Source of the DNA: Bdellovibrionota bacterium
GTDB taxonomy: Bacteria; Bdellovibrionota; UBA1018; UBA923
NCBI GenBank assembly: GCA_040754655.1
Contig: JBFMCE010000059.1
Span: forward strand, 1-24,484
Reading direction: 5' to 3'
Length of the DNA: 24,484 nucleotides
The position numbers and the translations under genes were made by a program. Below are positions 6,885 through 24,484 of this stretch, piece by piece. Position 1 is the first letter of the stretch, and each line of letters opens with the position of its first letter. The notes under the pieces are model-generated. The model was not told the origin of the DNA. It made no database searches and was given only the letters and a program-made list of their open reading frames with translations.

Positions 6885-7850
6885 GTGGAAACGGTGCAAC
6901 CAAACCAAGCCAACGAACAGCTATTTCGCCCGTTTTCGAGCCCAAAGCGACCCAAGATCTGGCGTAGACTAGGTCTTGCAAGCCTTGTCGTCTTGGTTTT
7001 GCACGTCTTTTTCTTCAGTGTCGTCGCTCCTTACCTGAAACTTGAAAGTGACCGCGGACAACGCACGGAAGTCGTCCAAATCACCCCTCAAGAACTCGCT
7101 CGGCTTAAGAAAAAAATCCTCAATGATAAATACCTTAGTCCATTGCTTGAACAAGAACTGCGAAAAGAATTTCAAACAAAAGAACCCCCTAAAGACGCTC
7201 GCATGATGGCTCCGTTCAACCAAACGGTACCTCGCGAGAAAGTCGCAGGACCTCAACCCGATGCTCCGTTAAAGGGGGGCGGCACACCGAAAGCCCAGCA
7301 ACAGCCTCAGCAAAAACTAGACCTCTCTAAGCTAGGTTTAGGCTCAAAACTACCGCCGCCGCCAAAGCCGCAAACTTATGCTGGCCCCGAAGGTCCGCCG
7401 TCACCCCACCGCCCCGTGGGTCGTGATGACAAAAGCCTTGAACGCGCCGATGAGAACATGCTCAACGCCATTGAGAGTGAATACTATTCGTTCTTTTCTC
7501 GCTTGGAAGAGCCGATCATCCGCAATTGGTATTTCTTGCTGCGCTCAAACGACCACAAGATCAGGGAAGAAATGGTTGCGCGCAAAGTACGCGCCGGATC
7601 TGAGCTGCCGGTCACGATAGAGTTCGTGTTAGATCGAGAGGGTAATTTCAAGTCGATCGATGTGATCGAGAGTTCCGGGGTTCCAAGCCTTGACTGGGCC
7701 ACGCGAGAATCGGTGCGAAAGCTAGGCTCGCTTCCAAATCCGCCGCCCGGGCTTTTTGAGGGCGGGCAGTATTTTACGCGAAGATTGAAATTCATGGTGC
7801 ACGTGAGCGAGGCGCCCTTTATCAATGCGCGGCCTGATATTTATTGGTGA
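6885..7850 (+). CDS. TonB/TolA C-terminal domain protein (energy transducer-like)
   Basis: N-terminal TM helix with His (LVVLVLHVFFF), Pro/Gln-rich linker, C-terminal VTIEFVLDREG...SSGVPSLD...LPNPP. Confidence 0.8.
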   Translation: METVQPNQANEQLFRPFSSPKRPKIWRRLGLASLVVLVLHVFFFSVVAPYLKLESDRGQRTEVVQITPQELARLKKKILNDKYLSPLLEQELRKEFQTKEPPKDARMMAPFNQTVPREKVAGPQPDAPLKGGGTPKAQQQPQQKLDLSKLGLGSKLPPPPKPQTYAGPEGPPSPHRPVGRDDKSLERADENMLNAIESEYYSFFSRLEEPIIRNWYFLLRSNDHKIREEMVARKVRAGSELPVTIEFVLDREGNFKSIDVIESSGVPSLDWATRESVRKLGSLPNPPPGLFEGGQYFTRRLKFMVHVSEAPFINARPDIYW

Positions 7851-7858
7851 CGTGAGCG

Positions 7859-9328
7859 TCAGTGTCTTTTTGACTTAAGCCGGAGTTCAAACTGAGCCGG
7901 TCCTTTACCTGTGGGGCGAAAGATGCCAATCTCGTAGAACCCATGGTTGGATTCTTTTTTTGCCAAGCGTTTAAACTCCTGGATTACGACAGAGAGAGCT
8001 GCTTTGCATTCGAGGTTGAAGCCACAAAAATGCATTTTAGGACTTGCAACCACGTTGAACGGCGTGATCTGAATCTCTTCCAGATTAAGAAGACCGCTCA
8101 AACGGATCGCTTCCTCCCAATCGCTTCGGTTCGCCAAGGCCAAGATCTCTGCCGGGGGCCTGGGACGAGCCGAGAGCGCACGGTCTGCTGATCTCTCGAC
8201 GGAACCCAGTAGAAATGAGCAAAGGACATTCTTTGTCAAAGAATTACCTTTCTCTAAATCCAGTAACTTATCGTCGTATTCGCACCCATGCTCTTCAGCG
8301 AACTTCTTGAAACTTGCGAGCTGCTGCTTGCAACGTTCAAAGTTAAATTCAGATGTGTTTGAGCGGGAGTAACATTCTGTAAGCATTTTTTCAGGAATGA
8401 GACCCACCAGCTGGTGAATAGCGCCTTGATGCATATCCTTCGACTCAAGATCAATCTTCGCATCACTCAAGGCAGCCTCCATTTTTCCCACCTCAACGTC
8501 ATCAGGCAGTGGCAAAGAAAAATCAGGTGTGAAATCGATAGTAAGCGGCAACCTCTTGGGTTCAATTTGCGCATCAAGATCAGCGTCAAAGTCTTCGAGC
8601 AAGGCAAAACGCTCGCAATCAACCGCTGAAGACAAGATCTCAAACGACTTGTCGAAGTTCGCAAGCTCATCCACCGCCGATAAATAAACGACGCAATCTT
8701 TCATCTTCTTGTTCTCAGGCTTCCGACAGAATGCACGGCGCTCAATCACGGCTTTGTAGCGTGAGACACCAGTATCGCGAACCTGATCCGTGCATCGTGC
8801 GACGGAGTCAGGATCGCTAAACTCTTTGGTGCAATCAGGCAATAAGAGAACAGGCCTTGAGCCCGCAAGATCTGTCACCGTGAGAAGGCGAACCTTGGGG
8901 AATGCACCTACAACAATTTCAAGCGGTTTATCGAAAGGATGAGTAATATGGTCATGTCTGGGAATGGGTGGAGGATTGGGATAGTGCCACCACTGGCTCA
9001 ACCGATGGGTGACAGTTTGGCGTAAACTGAGATTTTCGCTTCCCCAGCTGAAATAATGAATTGAATGCAACGGCGGTTGCAGCGCATCTTTGAGCTTTGG
9101 GTCCACTGGCATGCCCAAAGGTTTCGTCGGCACGCACGCGTCACCATCGGGGTCATGAGAACTGGGCTTGTCCCCGAGATAAAACCGCGTGCAGTTGTAG
9201 TGTTGCTTTGTAAAAAGGTCGCGCACCTGCTCTAACATCTTCTGGTCTTCAGAGTTTTGAGAGAACCCCCAGGGGTCTGAAAGAAAGAAGAGAATCGAAA
9301 CCAGCGCGATAGGAACGCGTTTTTTCAT
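7859..9328 (-). CDS. Secreted Cys-rich hypothetical protein (489 aa)
   Basis: Signal peptide, about 13 Cys mostly in pairs; starts 3 nt after the stop of the sigma-ZAS fusion gene. Confidence 0.8.
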   Translation of the reverse strand: MKKRVPIALVSILFFLSDPWGFSQNSEDQKMLEQVRDLFTKQHYNCTRFYLGDKPSSHDPDGDACVPTKPLGMPVDPKLKDALQPPLHSIHYFSWGSENLSLRQTVTHRLSQWWHYPNPPPIPRHDHITHPFDKPLEIVVGAFPKVRLLTVTDLAGSRPVLLLPDCTKEFSDPDSVARCTDQVRDTGVSRYKAVIERRAFCRKPENKKMKDCVVYLSAVDELANFDKSFEILSSAVDCERFALLEDFDADLDAQIEPKRLPLTIDFTPDFSLPLPDDVEVGKMEAALSDAKIDLESKDMHQGAIHQLVGLIPEKMLTECYSRSNTSEFNFERCKQQLASFKKFAEEHGCEYDDKLLDLEKGNSLTKNVLCSFLLGSVERSADRALSARPRPPAEILALANRSDWEEAIRLSGLLNLEEIQITPFNVVASPKMHFCGFNLECKAALSVVIQEFKRLAKKESNHGFYEIGIFRPTGKGPAQFELRLKSKRH

Positions 9329-9331
9329 TCG

Positions 9332-10147
9332 CTAAAGTTTCTTCGAGAAGATCATCTGCAAAATAAAAAACACCGCAAGGCTCGCCAACAGCACTCGCAC
9401 TTGTGACTCATCAATGACACGCAGGAGGCCTGGCCAAGGGCTCGGGCCTTTTCTGTTTTTCAATTTAAGCGCTGTAAGAGTTACTTGCTCGACCTGCTTC
9501 TTGAACTCATTGTCGGGCTCGACCGAAGGAACCGAGCTCGCCCAATCGAGATATTGTTTCTTGAAATAACTGAAGCTCGTGCGACAAGTATCACAATCAG
9601 CCATGTGCTCATGCAACCTCGTTCCCGTGTCGGGGTCGAGATCATTTCCAATGTAATGAGAAAAAACCTCTGGAATTGGCGCCTCAGCGCTCCACCGTTT
9701 GCAATTGGGAACCCAGCGGTCTTCTTCGATTTCAAGACCTGCGGTTGCACCTGTCCAAGACTTGCCGTCCGAAAAAAGAAGGCGTGCGTTTTCAAGGTGC
9801 GAATCGAGTTGGCGTTGGCTGAGTTTAAGCGCACTAGCGATTTGAGCGCGGGTGAATCGCGCTTTCAATTTCAATACGACGGCTGCTCTTGCGATCGCAG
9901 GCATGCGAAAAAAAAGATCCGAACCAAACCCACGGTAAGCCTCGCGATCGGCGAACTCCCACAAGACTCCGGCAAAACGCTCTGAAGTGACTTGATCTTG
10001 CAACGTCAGCGCTACGACAGCATCGGCCACCGCTCGCTCGGCCTTTTCAACCGATTGCGTAACTGCATAACCAAGCGAGAGCCCCCAGCTTTCGGCCCAG
10101 GCAAGGTACTTCTCAGTCATGCGTGCTTTCTGTTCCGGCGTCACCAC
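9332..10147 (-). CDS. Degenerate ECF sigma-like domain + zf-HC2 (ZAS) anti-sigma motif + C-terminal TM helix
   Basis: Sigma2-like LGYAVTQSVEKAERAVADA; sigma4-like MPAIARAAVVL...TRAQIASALKLSQRQLDSHLENARLLF; H181-x3-C185-x2-C188; TM at about aa 252-267. Confidence 0.7.
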   Translation of the reverse strand: MVTPEQKARMTEKYLAWAESWGLSLGYAVTQSVEKAERAVADAVVALTLQDQVTSERFAGVLWEFADREAYRGFGSDLFFRMPAIARAAVVLKLKARFTRAQIASALKLSQRQLDSHLENARLLFSDGKSWTGATAGLEIEEDRWVPNCKRWSAEAPIPEVFSHYIGNDLDPDTGTRLHEHMADCDTCRTSFSYFKKQYLDWASSVPSVEPDNEFKKQVEQVTLTALKLKNRKGPSPWPGLLRVIDESQVRVLLASLAVFFILQMIFSKKL

Positions 10148-10154
10148 GAGATCA

Positions 10155-10184
10155 AGTGTATCACTTCATTTTTAGGGTTTGCCA
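10155..10184 (-). promoter_or_regulatory. Sigma70 promoter with extended -10, 7 nt before GTG 10147 (leaderless-type)
   Basis: TGGCAA-N18-TACACT with TG extension (TGaTACACT); no SD. Confidence 0.55.
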
Positions 10185-10286
10185 TCGGACAAAGGCCATA
10201 GTGGCCGGTTTATGGACTTTTTTGCCTAATAATAACGCCATGCCGCAGTCTTGGCTGGCTTACTTCAGGAAAAGCGATGAACGGAA

Positions 10287-10922
10287 TCACTCAGGATCAA
10301 GCCCAAAAGTGGTGGGCTCAGGGTAAAAACCCCCTCTGAGGATGGTACCGTCTGCAGGTTTTCGGACGGCAGACTTTTCGTCTTGTCTTTCGCCTTCCCG
10401 AGACTCGGTCTCTCGAAGGCTTGAAGGAACCAAGGGCACTGCATCGGCGTATTCCTTCCAATCGATCTCGGAAATCTCGCTAAACTCACCGATATCAATA
10501 AAACGACACTCAAGCTTGAGATTCCAGGCAGCACTCTCGTATCCACCACCCGTGTAGTTCAAATCTGGAAGAGCAGGAGCCCTATGAACATGCTCAACCC
10601 CGCCGTCTGCGCGCGTCAAGGTTGCCACTTGCCGGCTTGTTTGAGCATCAAACTTCACCTCAAAGCTTCCGTTCCAACGACAACCTTTCAGGTCTTCGGA
10701 TTGGATCGACATCTTGTAGTCATCGAATGAAAACGAATTTGAAAAAGATCTTCGGCCTGCCATCTCACGCACAGCCCCGATCCATTCGCCGAGCACTGCC
10801 GAGTCGTCGCCGCAGCTGAGCCTGCAAAGAAATCGGTACATCGGTCTTGAGTTGCTTTTGACTTCATCGGCCGAAACATCGGTTTGCGGTGCCATCAGTA
10901 AGGCTAACAAGAGCCAGCGCAT
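10287..10922 (-). CDS. Secreted hypothetical protein, paralog of 10929-11741
   Basis: Signal peptide; CxxxC...C...EH...LEC pattern shared with the neighbouring gene. Confidence 0.75.
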   Translation of the reverse strand: MRWLLLALLMAPQTDVSADEVKSNSRPMYRFLCRLSCGDDSAVLGEWIGAVREMAGRRSFSNSFSFDDYKMSIQSEDLKGCRWNGSFEVKFDAQTSRQVATLTRADGGVEHVHRAPALPDLNYTGGGYESAAWNLKLECRFIDIGEFSEISEIDWKEYADAVPLVPSSLRETESREGERQDEKSAVRKPADGTILRGGFYPEPTTFGLDPE

Positions 10923-10928
10923 GCGCTT

Positions 10929-11741
10929 CTACTCTTGCGTTACGGTCGCGGTCTCTGTCGCGACTGACGCAGTATCGGCTTCAAGCTCAATGCGCATGTA
11001 GCTCGCGGTCGAACTTTCAGCTGCATCGAGATCACCTAAATTCTCACTCACGCTAGCGCTTTTAGCAGGGGCCAAAGTCGACGTCACCGAGCGCGAGATG
11101 CTCGCCGTGTTGGTGATCAACGGAGCCGACGTCGCGGTTTCGACGAGTTTTACCTCATCAGCCTGAGCCTCGACCTTTGCGGTTTCTTGTGGCTGCACTT
11201 CTGCTTTCGGCATTTCTACGATTTTTTCCGCAGGAGAGAACGGAACCTCGAGTGCCCATTCTTCGTGACCAATGATTTGGCTTTTGCATTCAAGAGAAAC
11301 GCCCAGAGAATCATTTAAGAAGTACAGCTCAAGCGCTTCAGGACTATCGATATCCTGTAGAGACTGTGAATGCTCAAAGCGAGTTTGTCCCTTTTGACCT
11401 TTCATCTTGACGGAAAGAGCGTCTCCAACAAGAGAAATGTCAACTTTACCTTGAAGAGGACATGCGGGTAACTTTTCAAGGTCGACGACCATTTTTGAGG
11501 GATCCATTTTATTGGGGAAGCTCAGCCAGTTGGGAGCGCCTTTCTTTGAGCCTAAAAGACCCGATGCGCTCATCTTTGCGTTAAGCAAATCTGGAGCGGT
11601 CACTTCTACGACCGTTCGTTCGCCGTTGCATCCGATCGCACACATATACTCGTGGCGCTCTTTTGATTCTGCGTGGATATCGCTTGCAGACAAGATTGAT
11701 AGAACGATGGTGGAAAACAGAAAAAGCCCTGTTTTGAACAT
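10929..11741 (-). CDS. Secreted hypothetical protein with Ala/Thr/Ser/Glu-rich tail
   Basis: Signal peptide ending IHA, AAGGAG SD, four conserved Cys, low-complexity C-terminus. Confidence 0.8.
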   Translation of the reverse strand: MFKTGLFLFSTIVLSILSASDIHAESKERHEYMCAIGCNGERTVVEVTAPDLLNAKMSASGLLGSKKGAPNWLSFPNKMDPSKMVVDLEKLPACPLQGKVDISLVGDALSVKMKGQKGQTRFEHSQSLQDIDSPEALELYFLNDSLGVSLECKSQIIGHEEWALEVPFSPAEKIVEMPKAEVQPQETAKVEAQADEVKLVETATSAPLITNTASISRSVTSTLAPAKSASVSENLGDLDAAESSTASYMRIELEADTASVATETATVTQE

Positions 11742-12004: not shown

Positions 12005-13408
12005 TTAAGATAATCTACCCAATGATTGTTTAGCCTGCGCCAACTGCTTCAAAACCGCAGCCGGAGATGTGCCGCCCTGCGAAGTGCGCGCATTCAAAAC
12101 CGCGCGAGGTTGGATTTCATCCACAACTGAAGGTCTAAAAAGCGTGCTAATTTTTTTTAGTTCATCAAATGAAACCTGTTCCAGCTTTTTTTGATTTTCG
12201 ATGCAGTATCGAACTACCCCACCTACGACCTCATGAGCTTGCCGAAACGGCATGCCTTGCCTGACCAAATGATCAGCCAGATCGGTGGCATTCGAAAAAT
12301 CACCCTCTACAGCGCACGTCATTCGATCTCGATTAAAATTTGCCTTCGACAACATCAATGCCATCAGATCTAAACTCTGCGAAACAGTATCAAGGCCGGC
12401 AAACAAGAACTCTTTGTCTTCTTGAAGGTCACGGTTGTACGAAAGCGGCAACCCCTTGAGCATCGTAAGCGCTCCTATCAACGCGCCAAAGACTTTTCCC
12501 GTGCGCCCCCGAATCAGCTCCGCGACATCAGGGTTTTTCTTCTGTGGCATGATGCTACTTCCCGTGGTCACAGCGTCATCAAGTTCTACAAACCCGTATT
12601 CAGGCGTGCTCCACAAGATGAGTTCTTCTGAGAGCCTTGAAAGATGCGTTGCGATCAACGATGCACAACTCAAAAACTCGACCACGAAATCGCGATCGCT
12701 CACGGCATCGAGACTGTTCTGGGAGACCAACGCAAAACCCAGTTCCTTTGCCACCATCTCGCGATCGAGCGGAAATGAAGTACCCGCCAGAGCCGCAGAA
12801 CCCAGAGGAAGCACATTGAGCCTTGCCGCACACTCTCGCAAACGAGCTTTGTCTCGATCAAGCATCCAAAAATACGCAAGCAAGTGATGCGCGAGACTCA
12901 CGGGCTGCGCGTGTTGCAGGTGGGTCGTACCCGGCATCAACGTTTCAACATGGTTTTCAGCCAAAGATACCAGTGTCGACTGCACTGCTTGAAGCTTCTC
13001 AACGACTACAGAACATTCTCCACGCAAATAAAGCCTAGTCGCAGTCGCGACTTGATCATTGCGACTACGGGCGGTGTGCAATTTTCCGGCAAGCGCGCCC
13101 AATTTCCGAGTGAGCCTTGCTTCGATCTCAGAATGGATGTCTTCGGCATTGTTTTTGGTCATTATCGCCAAACTTCCGCCAGACTCTTTGAGCTCAGCAG
13201 TGATTTCAGACTGCAGTTCGCCCAAAGCGGAGACCAGCGCTTGAGCCTCTTCACTCGTGAGTACGCCTACTTTGCCCAGCATCCTTGCATGGGCAATGCT
13301 CAACCGCAGATCCTCGCTCCAAAGCCTTGCATCAATGGCGATCGAACTTGTGAACGCCTCGACCATTTTGTGGGTTTCTTTCTCAAATCTTCCACCCCAA
13401 AGCTTCAC
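12005..13408 (-). CDS. argH: Argininosuccinate lyase
   Basis: KLWGGRF, HTARSRNDQ, GSSIMPQKKNPD, YNRDLQEDK; its GTG start overlaps the argG TGA stop (GTGA). Confidence 0.97.
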   Translation of the reverse strand: MKLWGGRFEKETHKMVEAFTSSIAIDARLWSEDLRLSIAHARMLGKVGVLTSEEAQALVSALGELQSEITAELKESGGSLAIMTKNNAEDIHSEIEARLTRKLGALAGKLHTARSRNDQVATATRLYLRGECSVVVEKLQAVQSTLVSLAENHVETLMPGTTHLQHAQPVSLAHHLLAYFWMLDRDKARLRECAARLNVLPLGSAALAGTSFPLDREMVAKELGFALVSQNSLDAVSDRDFVVEFLSCASLIATHLSRLSEELILWSTPEYGFVELDDAVTTGSSIMPQKKNPDVAELIRGRTGKVFGALIGALTMLKGLPLSYNRDLQEDKEFLFAGLDTVSQSLDLMALMLSKANFNRDRMTCAVEGDFSNATDLADHLVRQGMPFRQAHEVVGGVVRYCIENQKKLEQVSFDELKKISTLFRPSVVDEIQPRAVLNARTSQGGTSPAAVLKQLAQAKQSLGRLS

Positions 13409-14607
13409 TGACTTTTCCTCAAGTTTTGCGAAAGTTGAAAATACATTTGCTGTTGAAGGCCGAAGTTTTTCACCGTTCCCGTGCTCTCGCGTTGATCAAA
13501 AGCAGTCGTATCAAACGAAGCTAGGTTTTCTGAATAAAGCGCCCAGGCGCTTTTTCTTCCAGCGACTTGCACTGAGCCTTTGAAAAGCCTCAAAAACACC
13601 GTACCAGTAACTCTGGTTTGAGTCTTCGCGATGAAAGCCTCGAGAGCGTCTTTGAAAGGATCATACCAGAGGCCTTCATAAGCGAGCCTTCCCCACTCGG
13701 CATCGACAGAAGCTTTGAATCTCAGTTCCTCTCGAGTCAATACAAGCGCTTCAAGAGCCCGGTGCGCGGTCAAAAGAAGGGTCGCGCCAGGACATTCGTA
13801 ATTCTCTCTCACCTTAAGGCCAAGCATTCTGTCTTCCATGATGTCGATTCGCCCTACCCCATTCTCGCCTGCGAGTGCATTTGCCTTCGCGATCAACGCA
13901 GCAGGGCTTAGTTTGGTTTTTCCGATCGCCACCGGAACGCCGTTCTCAAAGTCGACTTCGATTTCTTGAGCGAAATTCGGAGCCTCGATTGGTGAGCGGG
14001 TCCATTGAAAGATTTCTTCTGGCGGGAAAAAGTCAGGCTCTTCCAAGCGACCACCCTCGATTGAACGCCCCCACAGGTTTTCGTCGATGCTCCAGATTTT
14101 CTCTAAACTCTGCTTGATTGGCACTCCATGGGTTTTTGCGTACTCAATTTCCCAAGTGCGGGTGAGGTTTCTCTCTCGAATCGGAGCATGGATTGTAGCT
14201 TCGGGCATCAGAGCCCTGATGCTGAACTCGATGCGGAACTGATCATTCCCTTTGCCTGTGCAGCCATGCGCAAATGCCGTGGCTCCCAGTTTCTTCGCCA
14301 CTTCGACGGCCTTTGCCGCGATGATCGGCCGAGCAATCGAGGTGCTCAGCGGATAGCCTTCGTAATAACCGTTGGCGCGAACCGCTGCGAAGCAATACTC
14401 CTTGGCGAACTCTTCTTTGGCATCAATGGTGTAGTGCTCGGTTCCCATTGCTTTTGCCTTTTCAGCCGCATCGCGGATGTCGGCTTCAGGTTGCCCGACA
14501 TCCACAGTCACCGTGATAACGCGCTCATAACCATACTCTTCGCGCATCAGGGGGATGCAAATCGAAGTATCCAAACCTCCGGAATAAACCAAAACCACTT
14601 TCTTCAT
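13405..14607 (-). CDS. argG: Argininosuccinate synthase (start reassigned to ATG 14607; 400 aa)
   Basis: YSGGLDTS, HGCTGKGNDQ, SIDENLWGRS; GAGGAG SD before 14607. Confidence 0.97.
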   Translation of the reverse strand: MKKVVLVYSGGLDTSICIPLMREEYGYERVITVTVDVGQPEADIRDAAEKAKAMGTEHYTIDAKEEFAKEYCFAAVRANGYYEGYPLSTSIARPIIAAKAVEVAKKLGATAFAHGCTGKGNDQFRIEFSIRALMPEATIHAPIRERNLTRTWEIEYAKTHGVPIKQSLEKIWSIDENLWGRSIEGGRLEEPDFFPPEEIFQWTRSPIEAPNFAQEIEVDFENGVPVAIGKTKLSPAALIAKANALAGENGVGRIDIMEDRMLGLKVRENYECPGATLLLTAHRALEALVLTREELRFKASVDAEWGRLAYEGLWYDPFKDALEAFIAKTQTRVTGTVFLRLFKGSVQVAGRKSAWALYSENLASFDTTAFDQRESTGTVKNFGLQQQMYFQLSQNLRKSQ

Positions 14608-14629
14608 CGTCGGACTCCTCTCGTATGTC

Positions 14630-14643
14630 TGCATATATATGCA
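14630..14643. promoter_or_regulatory. ARG box (ArgR operator) over the putative argG -10
   Basis: Perfect palindrome TGCATATATATGCA; overlaps minus-strand TTGCAT-N17-TATATA (14662-14634). Confidence 0.8.
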
Positions 14644-14692
14644 TGAAAATCTGACCATGCAAGAAAATTTATGCTTGACTCTTACTATAGAT

Positions 14693-14727
14693 AGCATATT
14701 TATGCATATATGGTGCATAAATATGAA
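14693..14727. promoter_or_regulatory. Tandem ARG boxes spanning the argC start
   Basis: AGCATATTTATGCA (14693-14706) and TGCATAAATATGAA (14714-14727), 21-bp period typical of ArgR tandem operators; TTGACT -35-like box at 14675-14680. Confidence 0.85.
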
Positions 14728-15807
14728 ACAAAAGCTGTTCCGGCCGCCATTGTGGGAATAAGAGGCTACTCTGGCCTTGAACTCGCAGGGCTCTTGCTTA
14801 AACATCCGGGAGTTGAGCTCAAGGCAGGGTTTTCATCCGACCCAGGCTTTAACCTTGGCGACTATCTCGAAGATGAAAAGGCCACCCAGGTATCGATTCT
14901 TAGCAACGAGGACATTGTTCAAACAGCTAGGGAATTTGAGACCCTCTTTCTTGCGACCCCGCCCAAGACCTCGCTTGATCTTGCACCAAAGCTTCTCGAA
15001 GCAGGCTGTCGGGTCATCGATTTGAGTGGCGCATTTCGCCTCAAAAAAGGTTCGACCGAGGAACGGATTGAAAAGTACCAGAAGTGGTACAAGCTTGAGC
15101 ACAACCAACCCGAACTTCTTTCTTCAGCGCACTATGGGCTTGTGCCGTGGGGAAGCCCAGAGGCGCTGCCTTCCGTGCGGTTCATCGCCAACCCTGGTTG
15201 TTATGCGACTTCGGTTTTGATGGCGCTTTTGCCGCTGGTGAAGGAAAAGCTGATTGAGCTCAATACCATCGTGATCGATGCAAAGTCAGGAACGTCGGGC
15301 GCGGGGAAAAAGGCGGAAGAAAACCTTCTTTTCGCAGAGGTCGCCGAAGACTGCACGCCATACAAGGTAGCTCAACACCAGCACCTGCCCGAGATCCGCG
15401 AAATGATCGAAAGGTATACGGGCGAAACCATAGATCCGATGTTCAGCACGACGCTTCTTCCGATCAAACGCGGCATTACGACCGCTATTTACGCCAGGCT
15501 GTCTGCAAGACTGCGAGAAGAACCTCTTTCTTCAGTCGTTGAAAGGATAGATCTGGCTTACGAAAAATTTTATGCAGACTACCCGCTCTTGAAATGGGGC
15601 TTGCTGCAAGAAGAGCCCGGGCGACCTTCGCCCCTTTCTTTGAAACGCGTCGTAGGATCGGCCCGAACCCGGATCCGGTATGCGGCCGAGGGCGATAAAC
15701 TTTTTGTGTTTTCAATGATCGACAATTTGCTCAAAGGGGCGGCCTCGCAAGCAATCGAGAATTTCAATTTGATCCATGGGCTTCCCCTTTTAACCGGCCT
15801 GACTTGA
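14710..15807 (+). CDS. argC: N-acetyl-gamma-glutamyl-phosphate reductase
   Basis: IVGIRGYSG, VIDLSGAFRL, IANPGCY, SGTSGAG, HQHLPEI, DNLLKGAA. Confidence 0.97.
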   Translation: MVHKYETKAVPAAIVGIRGYSGLELAGLLLKHPGVELKAGFSSDPGFNLGDYLEDEKATQVSILSNEDIVQTAREFETLFLATPPKTSLDLAPKLLEAGCRVIDLSGAFRLKKGSTEERIEKYQKWYKLEHNQPELLSSAHYGLVPWGSPEALPSVRFIANPGCYATSVLMALLPLVKEKLIELNTIVIDAKSGTSGAGKKAEENLLFAEVAEDCTPYKVAQHQHLPEIREMIERYTGETIDPMFSTTLLPIKRGITTAIYARLSARLREEPLSSVVERIDLAYEKFYADYPLLKWGLLQEEPGRPSPLSLKRVVGSARTRIRYAAEGDKLFVFSMIDNLLKGAASQAIENFNLIHGLPLLTGLT

Positions 15808-15823
15808 GAAGGAGGGACACGAA

Positions 15824-17023
15824 ATGACCCCAGGACCAGGAATCGCAAGAACCCTATTGCCCAGAGGCTTTCTCGCAAGCGGAATCAACTGCGGAGTCAG
15901 GCGCTATCGCCCCGACCTGGGCGTTATTCTATCGGAAGTCGATGCCGTAGGCGTGGGCGTCTTCACTCAAAATGAATGCAAGGCCGCTTCGGTGGTTTAC
16001 TCGCAGTCGATCCTTCCGACCAATCATTTGCGCGCCATCGTAACCAATAGCGGACAGGCGAATGCCGCTACAGGATCGCAAGGCAAGGAAGACAACTGGC
16101 AGATGGCCGTGGCCGCGGCGAAAAGCGTGGGTTGCCATGCGCATCAAGTCGCGACCGCATCTACCGGAGTCATTGGCGCGGCCTTGGCTGTCGATAAAAT
16201 CGCGGCCTCGATGCCCGAACTCGTACAGCGGGCGGGAACCACGGCTGAACCATTCGCTCTTGCGATACTCACCACTGATCTCGTGCCAAAAACGGTGACC
16301 ACTGAAGTCCGGTTGAGCGGCGGCCCGGTTCGGATCACCGGCATCTGCAAAGGCTCAGGCATGATTCACCCCAACATGGCCACGATGCTGGGATACCTGC
16401 TCACAGACGCCGAGATTGATATTGAAACAGCTCAGTCTTTGCTGAAAGAGGCGGCAAACTTGAGCTTCAATATGATCAGCGTCGACGGAGACACTTCGAC
16501 CAATGACTCGGTCTTTTTGGTCGCAAACGGCGCGAGCAGAGTCGGGCTTGAAACTACGGAGGACCACAAGCAGTTCAAAAAAGCGCTCACAGATCTTTCC
16601 CGGTTTCTCGCCCAAGCCATCGCACGAGATGGGGAAGGAGCAACGAAACTTATTGAAGTAACCGTACAAGGAGCTCCGAATGAAACCCTCGCTAGACAAG
16701 CGGCAAGAGGGTTGACCGTGAGCCCTCTGCTCAAGACCGCCGTGCATGGCGATGACCCCAACTGGGGGCGAGTGCTCGCAAGGCTTGGCGCGGAAAAAGT
16801 CCCGGCGGAATGCCTGGCGAAGCTTACGCTCCAAATCCAAGGCAAGACGCTTTGTGAGCGAGGGGCGCCCGCGGAATTCAAGCGCAATGAAGTGAGCCTT
16901 CTGCTCAAGAGCGACACGGTGAAGATCTTGGTGGACCTGCACTCAGGCCAAGCCACAGCGACAGCCTGGGGATGCGATCTCTCGAAGAAGTACATCGAAA
17001 TCAATGCGGAGTACACGACATGA
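15824..17023 (+). CDS. argJ: Ornithine acetyltransferase / N-acetylglutamate synthase
   Basis: NSGQANA, STGVIG, KGSGMIHPNMA|TML autoproteolysis site, DTSTND, DGEGATK, DPNWGR; GGAGG SD. Confidence 0.97.
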   Translation: MTPGPGIARTLLPRGFLASGINCGVRRYRPDLGVILSEVDAVGVGVFTQNECKAASVVYSQSILPTNHLRAIVTNSGQANAATGSQGKEDNWQMAVAAAKSVGCHAHQVATASTGVIGAALAVDKIAASMPELVQRAGTTAEPFALAILTTDLVPKTVTTEVRLSGGPVRITGICKGSGMIHPNMATMLGYLLTDAEIDIETAQSLLKEAANLSFNMISVDGDTSTNDSVFLVANGASRVGLETTEDHKQFKKALTDLSRFLAQAIARDGEGATKLIEVTVQGAPNETLARQAARGLTVSPLLKTAVHGDDPNWGRVLARLGAEKVPAECLAKLTLQIQGKTLCERGAPAEFKRNEVSLLLKSDTVKILVDLHSGQATATAWGCDLSKKYIEINAEYTT

Positions 17024-17916
17024 AAACACTCGCGCGCTCGCACGGGGTTCTCGCCACCCTCGGTTACGTCAAACGGTTCGCTGGCACCAGTCTTCTCGTC
17101 AAGATTGGCGGTGCGGCGCTTGAAGAGGCTTCGCTTGTAAAGCGTATCTGTGAAGACTTGCACCTCATCCAATCGGTGGGCATTTCGTTGGTGGTGGTGC
17201 ATGGCGGAGGGCCCGCCATCAATCGCGAGCTCACCTCGAAGGGAATTGCCTGGGAATTCGTCGAAGGACAAAGAGTGACCACTCCGGAAATGATGGAAGT
17301 CATCGAGATGGTGCTCTGCGGTCAGGTGAATCGGAAGATCGTCAAGGCGTTGAACCAGACGGGCGCTTCGGCCGTCGGAATCTCGGGAACGGATGGCCAG
17401 ACTCTCCTCTGCAAACCGGCCAGCGCAAGGCTGGGATTGGTAGGTTCAATAGAAAAAGTGAATACGACGTTCATTGACTCGATTCGAAAGACGCCAGCCA
17501 AAGAGGGTTTCTCCGCCATCCCGGTTGTAGCCCCCATCGGGATTTCGCGCACCGGAACAACGTTCAACATCAACGCAGACTGGGCAGCCAGTCGCGTTGC
17601 TCAGGCGCTCGGGGTGAAGAAAATGATTTTTCTCACGGACCAAGATGGAATTTTGGGTGAAACCGGGCAAATTCTGCAAGAACTCGACGCAGGCGAACTT
17701 GAAACCTTGATCGAAACCGGCGTTGTAAAAGGCGGGATGCTCGCAAAGACCAAGACCATCCTGCATGCGCTCAAAAACGGAGTCACTGAAACGCATATCT
17801 TGAATGCAAGAAGACCCCACAGTTTGATCGAAGAACTATTCACCGATCAAGGCATCGGCACCATCTGCAGGCTCAGGTCGCGAGCCTCGAAACAAAAGGA
17901 GTTGCGCTATGCTTAA
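17020..17916 (+). CDS. argB: Acetylglutamate kinase (start reassigned to ATG 17020, ATGA overlap with argJ; 298 aa)
   Basis: VKIGG, VHGGG, GQRVT, NINAD, GGMLAK; N-terminal helix and ELFTxxGIGT signature of arginine-inhibited NAGKs. Confidence 0.96.
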
Positions 17917-18871
17917 ACTGCAAAACAGGCACCTGCTCACGGGCGAAGAACTTTCCCTGGTTGAAATAAACGCTTTGCTTGATCTCGCCGACACTCTGGC
18001 AAAAGAGCGCAGACAAGGCATTGCGCAGACCAATTCGTTGCAGGGAAAGCACATGGTGCTTTTCTTTGAAAAACCTTCACTGCGCACAAGACTAAGTTTT
18101 ACCGTTGCAATGCAAGAACTGGGTGGCTTCGTGATCGACAGCACTTCCGCCACTCGCAAATCCGAGGAACCCGAAGATTTGGCAAGGGTACTAGCAGGTT
18201 ATTGCCATGCGGTTGTCGCGAGGGTGCACCATCACGCTTGGGTCGAGAGGCTAGCGAGCCGTTCTCCGATTCCGGTGATCAATGGCCTATCAGACTCGCA
18301 CCATCCCTGCCAGGTGCTTGCCGACATCTTGACTTTAAAGCAGCGCTTTGGGTCAGTTGAAGGATTGAGGCTTGCTTATGTCGGTGACGGCAACAACATG
18401 CTGCATAGCTTGTTATTGCTGATGCCCTTCCTAGGAATTCAAGTTCACTACGCCTGCCCTCAAGGTTATGAACCTAACGCGCTCATCAGAAAACGCGCCA
18501 TAGCTCGGGCAAAGGAAGGAGTTCTTGCTAAAAAACACTCGTCTCTCTTCAAAGCCTCTGAAAGCGTTCAAGCCTTCACCGATCCCATCGAGGCCGTACG
18601 CGACGCCAATGTTGTTTACACAGACGTCTGGACGAGCATGGGCTTTGAAACGGAACAAACAGACCGCGAAAGAGCTTTCGACGGTTACCAACTCAATGAA
18701 GAAATCTATTCCCATGCCGCACCGAATGCACTAATCATGCACTGTATGCCGATGCTCAGAGGAAAAGAGATCTCAGAAACCTTGCCCGATCATCCCAACT
18801 CGGTTGTTTTTGCTCAAAGTGAAAATCGCCTTCATGCTCAGAAGGCCTTGCTTATGGGACTTCTTGGATAA
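17909..18871 (+). CDS. argF: Ornithine carbamoyltransferase
   Basis: FEKPSLRT, HPCQ, GDGNN, DVWTSMG, HCMP, ENR. Confidence 0.93.
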   Translation: MLKLQNRHLLTGEELSLVEINALLDLADTLAKERRQGIAQTNSLQGKHMVLFFEKPSLRTRLSFTVAMQELGGFVIDSTSATRKSEEPEDLARVLAGYCHAVVARVHHHAWVERLASRSPIPVINGLSDSHHPCQVLADILTLKQRFGSVEGLRLAYVGDGNNMLHSLLLLMPFLGIQVHYACPQGYEPNALIRKRAIARAKEGVLAKKHSSLFKASESVQAFTDPIEAVRDANVVYTDVWTSMGFETEQTDRERAFDGYQLNEEIYSHAAPNALIMHCMPMLRGKEISETLPDHPNSVVFAQSENRLHAQKALLMGLLG

Positions 18872-18880
18872 GGAGAGACG

Positions 18881-19324
18881 ATGCCAAAGTCGCGCTTAGC
18901 GGCCCTGAGAAAACTCTTGAGCCAAGAAAGAGCATCGACTCAAGATGAGCTGCGCGAGCAACTCGAAAAACTTGACTTCGAAGTCACTCAATCGACGATT
19001 TCACGTGATTTGCGGAAGATCGGGGCCATCAAAGCCATCGACCCCGACGGACGCACGGTCTACCGACTGCCCGAAGAGAGTTTAGCTCCAATCACCGCCA
19101 GCTCGATGCGAGAGCTTGTTTTAGACATTCAAAGCAACGGTTATCTGATCGTCATCCATACGACGCCAGGCTCGGCCTCGCTAGTCGCACGGCAACTGGA
19201 TCAAGTGGCGCCTGAGAACATCCTAGGAACGATCGCGGGTGATGATACGGTATTCGTCGCGCCCGCTTCACTTAAAGAGACGAAGAGCGCGATTCGGCTG
19301 ATCGAAGACGCGCTTTCTGAGTAG
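18881..19324 (+). CDS. argR: Arginine repressor
   Basis: TQDEL, VTQSTISRDL and GTIAGDDT motifs; AAGGAG SD. Confidence 0.97.
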   Translation: MPKSRLAALRKLLSQERASTQDELREQLEKLDFEVTQSTISRDLRKIGAIKAIDPDGRTVYRLPEESLAPITASSMRELVLDIQSNGYLIVIHTTPGSASLVARQLDQVAPENILGTIAGDDTVFVAPASLKETKSAIRLIEDALSE

Positions 19325-23685: not shown

Positions 23686-24484
23686 ATGTTTAATTCTGAC
23701 CGACTACAGTATCAAAATTATCGCCAGTGGCTCGAAGGCGAACTCACGAAGCGTTGCGAGAAGAATCCAAAATACTCGCTCCGCGCCTTTGCGCGGACAT
23801 TGGGGCTGAGTCCCTCGCAATTGTCGCGCATTCTCTCAGGAAAACGCCCGCTGAGCGTACCGACGGCGGATCAAATCGCCTTTCGGCTGGGGCTCCCTCC
23901 TCAGGCGCGGTCGCAACTCCTGAGCCTTGTGGTGAATCAAGAACGCGCTCTTGGAGGACGCTCTAAAAAAGATCGAAAAACACAAGATGATCCATCCAGC
24001 TCCCTTGTCCTGTCTCTTGACGCGTTCGCAGTCATCTCGGCGTGGTACCACTATGCCATCACCGAGCTCACCCAGGTGGAAGATTTCAAGAGTCAACCCC
24101 GATGGATCGCCTCCCGGCTGGGCATCACCATCGCTGAGGCGAACGCGGCCGTCAAACGCCTCGTCCGTCTTGGGGTTCTTTCGAAAGACCACGAGGGCAA
24201 CTTCAAGAAAACAGCGGATTCAGTCGCGACCACCAATGAAATACGCTCATCCGGGCTTCGCAAGTTTCATAAACAGATTCTACAGAAAGCCATGGAATCA
24301 CTCGAAGAGATAGAACTTGAAAAACGCGATGTAACCGCAATAACGATGGCGATCGACCCAAAGAATTTGCCAAAGACCAAACAAAAGATTCAAAAGTTCC
24401 GAAAAACGCTTTGTTCACAACTTGAAAAAGGAAGGCCTACGGAAGTGTACACTCGGTCGATCCAACTTTTTCCATTAACCCTAC
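23686..24484 (+). CDS. TIGR02147 family protein (XRE-type HTH + DUF4423), truncated by window end; absent from the ORF track
   Basis: Manual translation: MFNSDRLQYQNYRQWLEGELTKRCEKNPKYSLRAFARTLGLSPSQLSRILSGKRPLS...ISAWYHYAITEL...WIASRLGI...RKFHKQIL...EKRDVTAITMAID...EVYTRSIQLFPLT; open for 266 codons. Confidence 0.92.
   Translation, partial: MFNSDRLQYQNYRQWLEGELTKRCEKNPKYSLRAFARTLGLSPSQLSRILSGKRPLSVPTADQIAFRLGLPPQARSQLLSLVVNQERALGGRSKKDRKTQDDPSSSLVLSLDAFAVISAWYHYAITELTQVEDFKSQPRWIASRLGITIAEANAAVKRLVRLGVLSKDHEGNFKKTADSVATTNEIRSSGLRKFHKQILQKAMESLEEIELEKRDVTAITMAIDPKNLPKTKQKIQKFRKTLCSQLEKGRPTEVYTRSIQLFPLTL

Follow-up and report, generated by a model that had tools for sequence, protein, structure and literature searches.

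Pairs of extracytoplasmic function (ECF) sigma factors and anti-sigma factors are a major bacterial signalling system. To our knowledge, most described single-chain fusions of the two come from Actinobacteria, with one further case in Pseudomonas, and PhyR is the only known example of sigma mimicry. PhyR is the anti-anti-sigma factor of the alphaproteobacterial general stress response, where it acts through such mimicry. Here we analyse a 24,484-nucleotide stretch of DNA from a Bdellovibrionota bacterium (positions 1 to 24,484 of contig JBFMCE010000059.1, assembly GCA_040754655.1; hereafter the window), in which an open reading frame (ORF) of 271 codons joins a sigma-like domain, a zinc-binding anti-sigma (ZAS) domain and a terminal membrane anchor. 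With a confidence just short of even, we read its product as a single-chain, tail-anchored descendant of an ECF sigma/ZAS pair, in which a pseudo-sigma factor is held by the zinc anti-sigma domain as a self-contained switch.

Described systems closest to the fusion protein

Among described proteins, the actinobacterial groups ECF48/52/53 (e.g., SCO4117) are closest in architecture. According to the available part of the source, they carry sigma2-sigma4, a zinc-finger anti-sigma domain and a membrane helix in one chain (PMC8999054), in agreement with a first-pass annotation of the window, made from the sequence alone, which had placed ECF-ZAS fusions mainly in Actinobacteria. The ESM Atlas also lists an actinobacterial cluster with PF04542+PF08281+PF13490. 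The fusion protein has the same domain order as ECF48/52/53 and likewise contains a zinc finger and one transmembrane (TM) helix. However, ECF48/52/53 possess a canonical core that matches Pfam, extensions of up to about 400 residues, proline-rich or carbohydrate-binding domains outside the membrane and one or two TM helices, whereas the fusion family lacks a Sigma70_r2 match, has about 35 fewer residues between sigma2 and sigma4, shows an acidic recognition helix and carries no outside domain. The fusion family also differs in belonging to an order that is Bdellovibrionota-like by its Atlas labels, and in being present there order-wide in a single copy.

IutY of Pseudomonas putida (ECF243) is a FecI/FecR-type hybrid released by Prc and RseP and, within the available part of the same source, the only case of regulated proteolysis shown experimentally (PMC8999054). 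In IutY, as in the fusion protein, a sigma domain is covalently joined to a membrane-bound anti-sigma domain. The anti-sigma part of IutY is of the FecR type, not ZAS, has a periplasmic sensing domain and is combined with a functional FecI-like core, while the fusion protein has no periplasmic part on which a site-1 protease could act.

PhyR also contains a compact ECF-like sigma2+sigma4 domain, which is not used for transcription, and is among the top structural matches of the fusion protein. PhyR couples its mimic to a receiver domain and binds NepR, a distinct anti-sigma protein (class II-like). The fusion protein instead combines its mimic with a membrane anchor and a ZAS domain of class I, and Pfam and NCBIfam scans of it detected no receiver domain. 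The resemblance to PhyR is limited to the non-canonical sigma-like domain and its fold.

SigW/RsiW of Bacillus subtilis is the best structural match for both halves of the fusion protein (5wuq_A, Z 10.2; 5wuq_C, Z 5.6) as well as the best PDB sequence match. The ligand pattern C/H-x(about 25)-H-x3-C-x2-C is common to the fusion protein, SigW/RsiW, RsrA, ChrR and RslA. These described systems are encoded by two genes and have a canonical sigma factor, and RsiW has an extracytoplasmic domain which is cut by PrsW. The fusion family, in contrast, is one chain with a degenerate sigma part and a tail anchor.

Overall, the architecture is of the same kind as in the known ECF48/52/53 and IutY fusions. 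The differences lie in the degenerate core, the lack of an outside domain, the taxon and the order-wide single-copy conservation. As stated in the available part of PMC7826278, the published ECF classification required Pfam hits to both sigma2 and sigma4, and ECF-like proteins without them were left out. Since the sigma2 part of the fusion family matches no Pfam model, the family is unlikely to be included in that classification.

Domain organisation

The gene and the parts of its product are as follows, with residues numbered on the 271-residue ORF:

9332..10147, minus strand: sigma-like/ZAS/tail-anchor fusion ORF, 271 residues, present in the window
9932..10147, minus strand: sigma2-like three-helix domain, residues 1-72 (helices 4-30, 33-48 and 55-68; hypervariable loop 49-54)
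9899..9931, minus strand: short connector GFGSDLFFRMP, residues 73-83, delimited by profile alignment and spacing
9764..9898, minus strand: sigma4.2-like helix-turn-helix, residues 84-128 (helices 84-94, 100-106 and 111-125), with the invariant R87 and the acidic "recognition" helix QLDSHLENAR
9677..9763, minus strand: low-confidence segment with a conserved W..CP.W hairpin, residues 129-157 (pLDDT 49-60); C149 codon at 9701-9703
9455..9676, minus strand: four-helix class I anti-sigma domain, residues 158-231; H181-x3-C185-x2-C188 codons at 9584-9607
9407..9454, minus strand: conserved P-x3-PG motif and a short helix before the anchor, residues 232-247 (P235 in 44/48 and G240 in 34/48 family sequences)
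9335..9406, minus strand: C-terminal hydrophobic helix (tail anchor), residues 248-271, with 3-5 residues beyond the helix and no extracytoplasmic domain

Protein databases hold a 262-residue version of the protein, which starts at M10. As the homologues begin with MTPE..., the true start of the gene is probably the second GTG (10144).

Fold of the sigma-like half

The AlphaFold2 (AF2) model of the fusion protein, built on a 19-sequence alignment (pLDDT 81.9, pTM 0.70), has three helices within residues 4-68 and another three within residues 84-125. In this model residues 1-128 fold as the sigma2 and sigma4 domains of an ECF sigma factor. When the model was compared with 48,161 PDB representatives in a wide VIA-align search, four ECF sigma factors ranked first, three of these chains coming from anti-sigma complexes, and all of the top 15 rows were sigma or sigma-like chains. 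These four and PhyR are:

5wuq_A, SigW with RsiW: Z 10.2, 126 residues aligned, model residues 1-128
5uxx_C, RpoE with NepR: Z 10.1
4cxf_A, CnrH with CnrY: Z 9.9
7qh5_B, SigG1: Z 9.8
3n0r_A, PhyR: Z 8.0

The model and the Z values of 9.8-10.2 to ECF sigma factors bear out the first-pass annotation, which had likened residues ~20-72 to sigma2 and residues ~78-125 to the sigma4 helix-turn-helix. The sigma2 domain of SigR (1h3l_B) also aligned with the sigma2-like domain (VIA Z 7.6, 70 aligned of 78). Foldseek returned sigma and PhyR rows at a probability of 0.96-1.00 with E values of only 0.1-0.9, PhyR domains occupying ranks 1-5. Because all Foldseek E values exceed 0.1, both for this model and for the model of the ZAS domain described below, the fold assignments rest on the consistency of ranks and on VIA Z. 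The case for the sigma fold in the model is made by the two domains aligning together and by the uniform ranking.

At the sequence level, hhalign of the family against 20 canonical ECFs from relatives' genomes recovered sigma4.2 (residues 81-122) with 91% probability and an E value of 1.1e-6. The same residues of the fusion protein gave a sub-threshold Pfam match to Sigma70_r4_2 (E 0.22), and 12 of 19 family members matched this model at E<=1 (best 0.0022). Sigma70_r2 is absent from the 16 Pfam families listed at E<=1 for the fusion protein and matches none of the 19 members. Thus, of the Pfam families proposed at first sight, Sigma70_r4_2 and zf-HC2 were matched below their cut-offs, and Sigma70_r2 failed in 19/19 members. 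No sigma model, TIGR02937 included, was matched at E<=1 in an NCBIfam scan of the fusion protein. A PF04542 scan of the window's genome found seven other loci and nothing at the fusion gene, and a search of PDB sequences with the family profile retrieved no sigma factor.

Degeneracy of the sigma-like half

With both sigma domains predicted to fold as in ECFs, and with the domain order found in the sigma/anti-sigma fusions covered by the available part of PMC8999054, the protein could be a genuine minimal ECF-type sigma factor that its fused ZAS domain keeps inactive at the membrane. Loss of zinc, or proteolysis in the anchor or linker, would set it free to direct transcription, which is the mechanism of IutY and the one proposed for ECF48/52/53. 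We consider this reading unlikely. Its main difficulties appear when 48 family sequences are set against the 20 canonical ECFs from relatives' genomes.

The first is the distance between the two domains. From the W of region 2.3 to the "LP" of sigma4 there are 18 residues in 38 of the 48 family sequences (range 18-33), compared with 47-65 (median 53.5) in the ECFs. The sigma2-sigma4 connection of the family is therefore about 35 residues shorter, as the first-pass annotation had already remarked of the window's protein. Judging by the short W-to-LP spacing, the family lacks the sigma2-sigma4 linker together with what flanks it in ECFs, the end of region 2.4 and the first sigma4 helix, and the connector 73-83 appears to stand in for all three. 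In the geometry of the holoenzyme, so short a chain would probably not let sigma2 sit on the clamp helices while sigma4 occupies the flap.

The second difficulty is the recognition helix. Two of its basic positions, which we take to be the -35 contacts of E. coli sigmaE, are altered in the family: the first, K/R in 17/20 ECFs, is D/E in 40/48 family sequences, and the second, R in 18/20 ECFs, is N in 28/48. The net charge of the helix is -1.2 in the family and +3.0 in canonical ECFs.

The third concerns sigma2, where the column comparisons depend on the weaker part of the profile alignment. The Q of region 2.2, present in 20/20 ECFs, is replaced by A in 30/48 family sequences; the acidic residue before it (D/E in 20/20 ECFs) by R/K in 28/48; and the D at the end of region 2.4 (18/20 ECFs) by R in 36/48. 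The canonical W (18/20 ECFs) is not kept. The degeneracy of the sigma2 motif seen at first in a single protein is thus a property of the family. The loop between sigma2 helices 2 and 3 forms the -10 base pocket in ECFs. The stretch that contains this loop (between alignment columns 47 and 58) is fixed at 16 residues in ECFs and varies from 9 to 51 residues in the family. The variable loop and the altered Q, together with the lack of a Sigma70_r2 or TIGR02937 match for the sigma2 part, again speak against an active sigma factor.

Some features are nevertheless retained. R87 is invariant (48/48), and the corresponding sigma4 position is arginine in 17/20 ECFs. E37, at the acidic position of the ECF "AED" motif, is shared by 40/48. 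The gene also occurs where no canonical ECF passes the cut-off, so the protein could be the only group-4-like sigma factor there, and the segment 129-157, predicted with low pLDDT and possibly flexible, could serve as a cleavage site. If the protein were an active sigma factor, it would have the shortest working sigma2-sigma4 connection known and would challenge the accepted role of the ECF linker. On balance, the comparison argues against a canonical promoter-reading sigma factor: the sigma-like domain seems to keep the fold while lacking what canonical promoter reading and a span across the polymerase would require.

Zinc anti-sigma half and membrane anchor

Pfam zf-HC2 matches residues 164-189 of the fusion protein at E 0.0015, its score of 19.1 bits falling short of the 22.2-bit cut-off, and reaches E<=1 in 14 of 19 family members (best 4.6e-5). 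The NCBIfam "anti-sigma factor" model NF052375 gave an E value of 0.0017. When the family profile was searched against PDB sequences, RsiW was the sole meaningful match (E 0.039).

In the AF2 model the domain consists of helices 158-165, 172-184, 186-205 and 213-231, with H181 closing helix 2 and C185 and C188 opening helix 3. By the definition given in the available part of PMC7406223, zinc-binding class I anti-sigma domains have four helices and carry Hx3Cx2C across helices 2 and 3. The modelled domain agrees with this definition in having four helices with the motif at the helix 2/3 junction. When the ZAS domain was modelled alone on 22 sequences (pLDDT 84.1), its best PDB match was again RsiW (5wuq_C; Foldseek probability 0.96, E 0.21; VIA Z 5.6, 70/70 aligned), and five of the top seven VIA rows were anti-sigma domains (RsiW, PupR, RskA, RslA and MucA).

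The only invariant columns of the 48-sequence alignment are R87, H181, C185 and C188, so that conservation of HxxxCxxC, which the first reading had made a key point, holds throughout. C149, located in the W..CP.W hairpin, is kept in 42/48, and the first Cys is present in 21 of 22 sequences when split forms of the protein (see below) are included. C149 is the probable fourth zinc ligand. The C-to-H spacing is 28-51 residues in the family; in RsrA, ChrR and RsiW it is roughly 25 and thus shorter. Together with the helix-turn-helix of sigma4, the anti-sigma helices are the most conserved parts of the family.

A metagenome-assembled genome (MAG) contains a version of the protein (P0018, L067 2501-3289) with an in-frame loss of the whole ZAS core, where ...CPQWN passes straight into SIPMIE...; its close relative L066 keeps the core.

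All 48 proteins have a hydrophobic C-terminal helix, which is followed by at most ~25 residues. Since this helix nearly ends every one of them, we conclude that the fusion protein is tail-anchored, with nothing outside the membrane. The organisation initially proposed, i.e., sigma2 and sigma4, ZAS and a terminal TM helix in a single chain without an outside domain, is consistent with the AF2 model and with the terminal helices in 48/48 sequences.

Distribution and origin of the family

A word-indexed search found 18 relatives of 274-348 residues with 34-51% identity, all from metagenomes or MAGs and all named hypothetical. An exhaustive HMMER scan of 1.84 billion representatives gave 37 matches at E<=0.001, several of them fragments and one spurious. 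The spurious one, P0050, was rejected as a family member: it is a 773-residue eukaryote-like RING repeat protein which matched through CxxC. Besides P0050, two family alignments drawn from the 37 representatives and the 19 hits of the word-indexed search exclude P0001 (identical to the window's protein), P0018 (ZAS gap) and, as fragments or N-truncated sequences, P0021, P0028, P0041, P0042, P0046, P0047 and P0049. A second, more distant clade of 256-333 residues with the same architecture is present in six other genomes of the order.

The 48-sequence profile was then searched in 401 genomes of the phylum, the window's own included, at E<=1e-8. The fusion gene was found in 82 of the 91 sampled genomes of the window's order, one copy each: within the order, it is present in 6/6 genomes of family f1, 49/58 of f3, 17/17 of f10 and in all nine small families. 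Outside the order, profile matches occur in 14 of 309 genomes. A locus search with one family alignment returned three loci, all in MAGs labelled Deltaproteobacteria or WWE3. The nearest ESM Atlas clusters are annotated "hypothetical protein", their commonest phylum being Bdellovibrionota. No Pfam or NCBIfam model reaches its cut-off for the family, and the source names of its database matches all read "hypothetical protein". A full-text literature search yielded no description of the family or of a sigma mimic fused to ZAS, with the limit that the group tables of PMC7826278 could list a relative. An unnamed family outside the ECF classification is nonetheless found in one copy in nearly every sampled genome of the order.

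In another family of the phylum, three genomes contain adjacent genes for a sigma-like protein (153-192 residues) and a ZAS-TM protein (135-143 residues). The split sigma-like protein shows the same short sigma2-sigma4 connection, while the split ZAS protein consists of the Cys/His/Cys/Cys set and a terminal membrane helix. The His follows the first Cys by 25 positions in the split ZAS protein, as counted on the L057 sequence. The split two-gene modules, in each case sigma-like gene first and tail-anchored ZAS gene second, are located at:

L057 1953-2963
L058 57-983
L059 1994-2920

In L057 and L059 the two genes abut without an intergenic base. One genome of this same family has a fused form of 271 residues, and in a genome of the same class the gene adjoining a sigma-like gene encodes a Cys-less TM protein. 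In a further family, two genomes encode a form of 227-237 residues which lacks sigma2 and consists of a sigma4-like part followed by ZAS and TM. These sigma2-less relatives are:

L062 1617-2300
L063 1633-2346

In L062 the gene adjoins LD-carboxypeptidase and ROK-family genes. A Pfam scan of 18 flanking and module proteins around the split or fused forms in other families revealed nothing recurrent. As split two-gene and partial forms occur outside the order, the fusion protein is best read as the fused descendant of a sigma/anti-sigma operon, i.e., of an ECF sigma/ZAS gene pair.

Proposed mechanism

The self-contained switch that we tentatively prefer can be outlined as follows. The pseudo-sigma half would have kept the sigma2 and sigma4 folds and lost the basic residues that contact -35, the fixed -10-pocket loop, and the linker with the first helix of sigma4. 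We infer that in the resting state the zinc-loaded domain (Cys149, His181, Cys185, Cys188) clamps the sigma-like domain at the cytoplasmic face of the inner membrane, and that the clamped form has the closed sigma2/sigma4 arrangement of sigma/anti-sigma crystal structures. As there is no outside sensor domain, the input would have to be cytoplasmic or within the membrane. The likeliest inputs would be anchor cleavage or a change at the Cys/His site, where thiols could be oxidised, electrophiles could attack or zinc could be lost. For oxidation of such a site or loss of its zinc, RsrA and ChrR are the paradigm. Opening would free the sigma-like domain, which would presumably act via protein-protein contacts with the RNA polymerase core or with another regulator, and not by promoter-specific initiation. 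The more specific proposal that this one-protein device is an order-wide cytoplasmic redox/zinc sensor, also in species without any canonical ECF sigma factor, whose freed pseudo-sigma factor modulates RNA polymerase or another regulator by competition instead of promoter recognition, may hold as well, though we regard it as doubtful.

Several points weigh against this picture. On the structural side, the VIA tool's own caveat rates a Z of about 10 as moderate when the protein is helical, and the Z of 5.6 obtained for the anti-sigma domain, though consistent, is weak in itself. Residues 130-170 are of low confidence in the monomer model (pLDDT 49-70). By sequence, significance was reached for sigma4.2 only, the residue correspondence in sigma2 being a low-confidence extension of the hhalign alignment, and the loss of DNA and core binding is suggested by residues and spacing. 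The "recognition" helix is strongly conserved (H117, L118, E119, N120); therefore it must bind something, and this could be DNA in an unusual mode. P0018, which lacks the ZAS core, may reflect a natural deletion of the zinc site or a faulty assembly. Finally, zinc motifs of membrane-bound anti-sigma domains are often structural, not sensory, RsiW being an example in the available part of PMC7406223.

If the pseudo-sigma reading is true, the family represents a second, independent lineage of sigma mimicry beyond PhyR, with a different input logic, and offers a compact 270-residue model for the reading of the cytoplasmic redox/zinc state by an anti-sigma domain. Should it indeed be a novel device, the split, fused and sigma2-less forms document its evolutionary path.

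Sigma factors of the carrier genomes

The window's genome has seven Sigma70_r2 loci, three of which are canonical ECFs (178, 188 and 235 residues). The gene for the 178-residue ECF (L026/L018, G000:C165) is followed by one for a 185-residue multi-pass membrane protein, likely its anti-sigma factor. The 188- and 235-residue ECFs have no obvious anti-sigma gene adjoining them. The fusion protein is the sole zf-HC2-like match in the genome.

As the only ZAS-like protein of a genome in which two of three canonical ECFs have no obvious adjoining anti-sigma gene, the fusion protein could also be an anti-sigma factor with a built-in decoy: its ZAS domain would target a separate sigma factor (canonical ECF or group-3) or another protein, and the fused domain would compete for the ZAS domain in the way that PhyR vies with EcfG for NepR. 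The sigma-like domain is degenerate, as in PhyR, and the sigma-like domains of PhyR are among its best structural matches (Foldseek ranks 1-5, VIA Z 8.0). We think this improbable, however. G017 (96% complete, 4 contigs) and G002 (89% complete) both carry the fusion gene, and neither has a canonical ECF over the cut-off; by PF04542 as well as TIGR02937, each has only three sigma-70-family genes above it, with open frames of 349-618 residues. Since these two genomes carry the gene, a decoy for canonical ECFs cannot be general, and the fusion module is independent of canonical ECFs. In addition, no receiver or other input domain that would drive such a switch was found in the Pfam and NCBIfam scans, no conserved sigma gene adjoins the fusion gene in the loci of 11 relatives, and for class I anti-sigma domains acting on group-3 sigma factors we have no citable precedent.

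G017 also contains one sub-threshold frame of 175 residues (G017:C4:822348-822689, minus strand), matching TIGR02937 at E 2e-4 over model positions 51-161. It may be another degenerate sigma-like gene.

Gene neighbourhood

The genes next to the fusion gene in the window are:

6885..7850, plus strand: TonB-like gene, 321 residues (TonB_C, TIGR01352), the conserved tail-to-tail neighbour in relatives
7859..9328, minus strand: ORF of 489 residues with a signal-like N-terminus and many Cys, starting 3 nt after the stop codon of the fusion gene
10287-10922 and 10929-11741, minus strand: two ORFs of 211 and 270 residues with signal-like N-termini, upstream of the fusion gene

The secreted Cys-rich protein encoded by the 489-residue ORF had been put forward in the first-pass annotation as a possible sensor partner. 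This has to be abandoned: the ORF is found in 0/30 relatives' genomes, is absent from all 11 relatives' loci, where in 10 cases the TonB-like gene takes its place, and matches neither Pfam nor NCBIfam families. In the window it sits between the fusion gene and the TonB-like gene, outside the conserved module, and has the look of an insertion specific to this lineage.

In relatives the TonB-like gene lies tail-to-tail with the fusion gene, directly against its 3' end and beside citrate synthase. This holds for 10 of 11 loci, which represent two families, and the gene is also a neighbour in G026. The loci with this arrangement are L001, L002, L004-L008, L010-L012 and L056; sometimes the two genes overlap by a few bases. 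This recurrence is compatible with a reading in which only ancestry links the protein to sigma/anti-sigma systems: it would now be a permanently folded scaffold at the membrane, with zinc in a structural part and a function outside transcription, e.g., in the envelope together with the TonB-like protein. The zinc of membrane-bound RsiW, described as structural in the available part of PMC7406223, would fit it too, as would the fact that no regulon, signal or partner was identified in this analysis. Yet we judge a scaffold very improbable: the two genes are convergent and so are not co-transcribed, the neighbour is missing in f10 loci and in others, and conservation within the protein is highest in the sigma4 helix-turn-helix and the anti-sigma helices, as would be expected if the old interface were still in use. 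The convergence of the genes and the lack of conservation in f10 loci also speak against the TonB-like protein as a functional partner; the gene order may be no more than inherited.

Genes upstream of the fusion gene differ among relatives. The 211- and 270-residue ORFs, which have no family match, were rejected as partners, being found only in the window's locus when compared with the 11 relatives' loci.

Promoter region and other genes of the window

A possible promoter element of the fusion gene was read by eye:

10155..10163, minus strand: TGaTACACT, putative extended -10-like element, 7 nt upstream of the first GTG

TGnTAnnnT-like elements are present upstream of the start in several of 12 orthologues, at 6-10 nt in several and at ~40 nt in L001 and L005. 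No ECF-type (autoregulatory) promoter motif was seen by eye in these 12 upstream regions, which is one more point against an active ECF-type sigma factor. A simple two-hexamer promoter scan of 7700-10400 found 0 sites, and the DNA preceding the fusion gene in the window shows no recognisable Shine-Dalgarno sequence. These sequence features suggest an extended -10 promoter used by the housekeeping sigma factor, not an autoregulated ECF promoter. The mRNA may be leaderless or near-leaderless, perhaps starting at the GTG.

Elsewhere in the window, positions 12005-19324 hold an arginine biosynthesis cluster with genes for an argH-like lyase, an argG-like synthase, argC-, argJ-, argB- and argF-like products and the ArgR repressor. 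The longest argG ORF (466 residues) has ~65 extra N-terminal residues, so the real start is probably internal. A gene for an HTH_3 + DUF4423 protein at 23686-24483 (plus strand) is cut by the end of the window.

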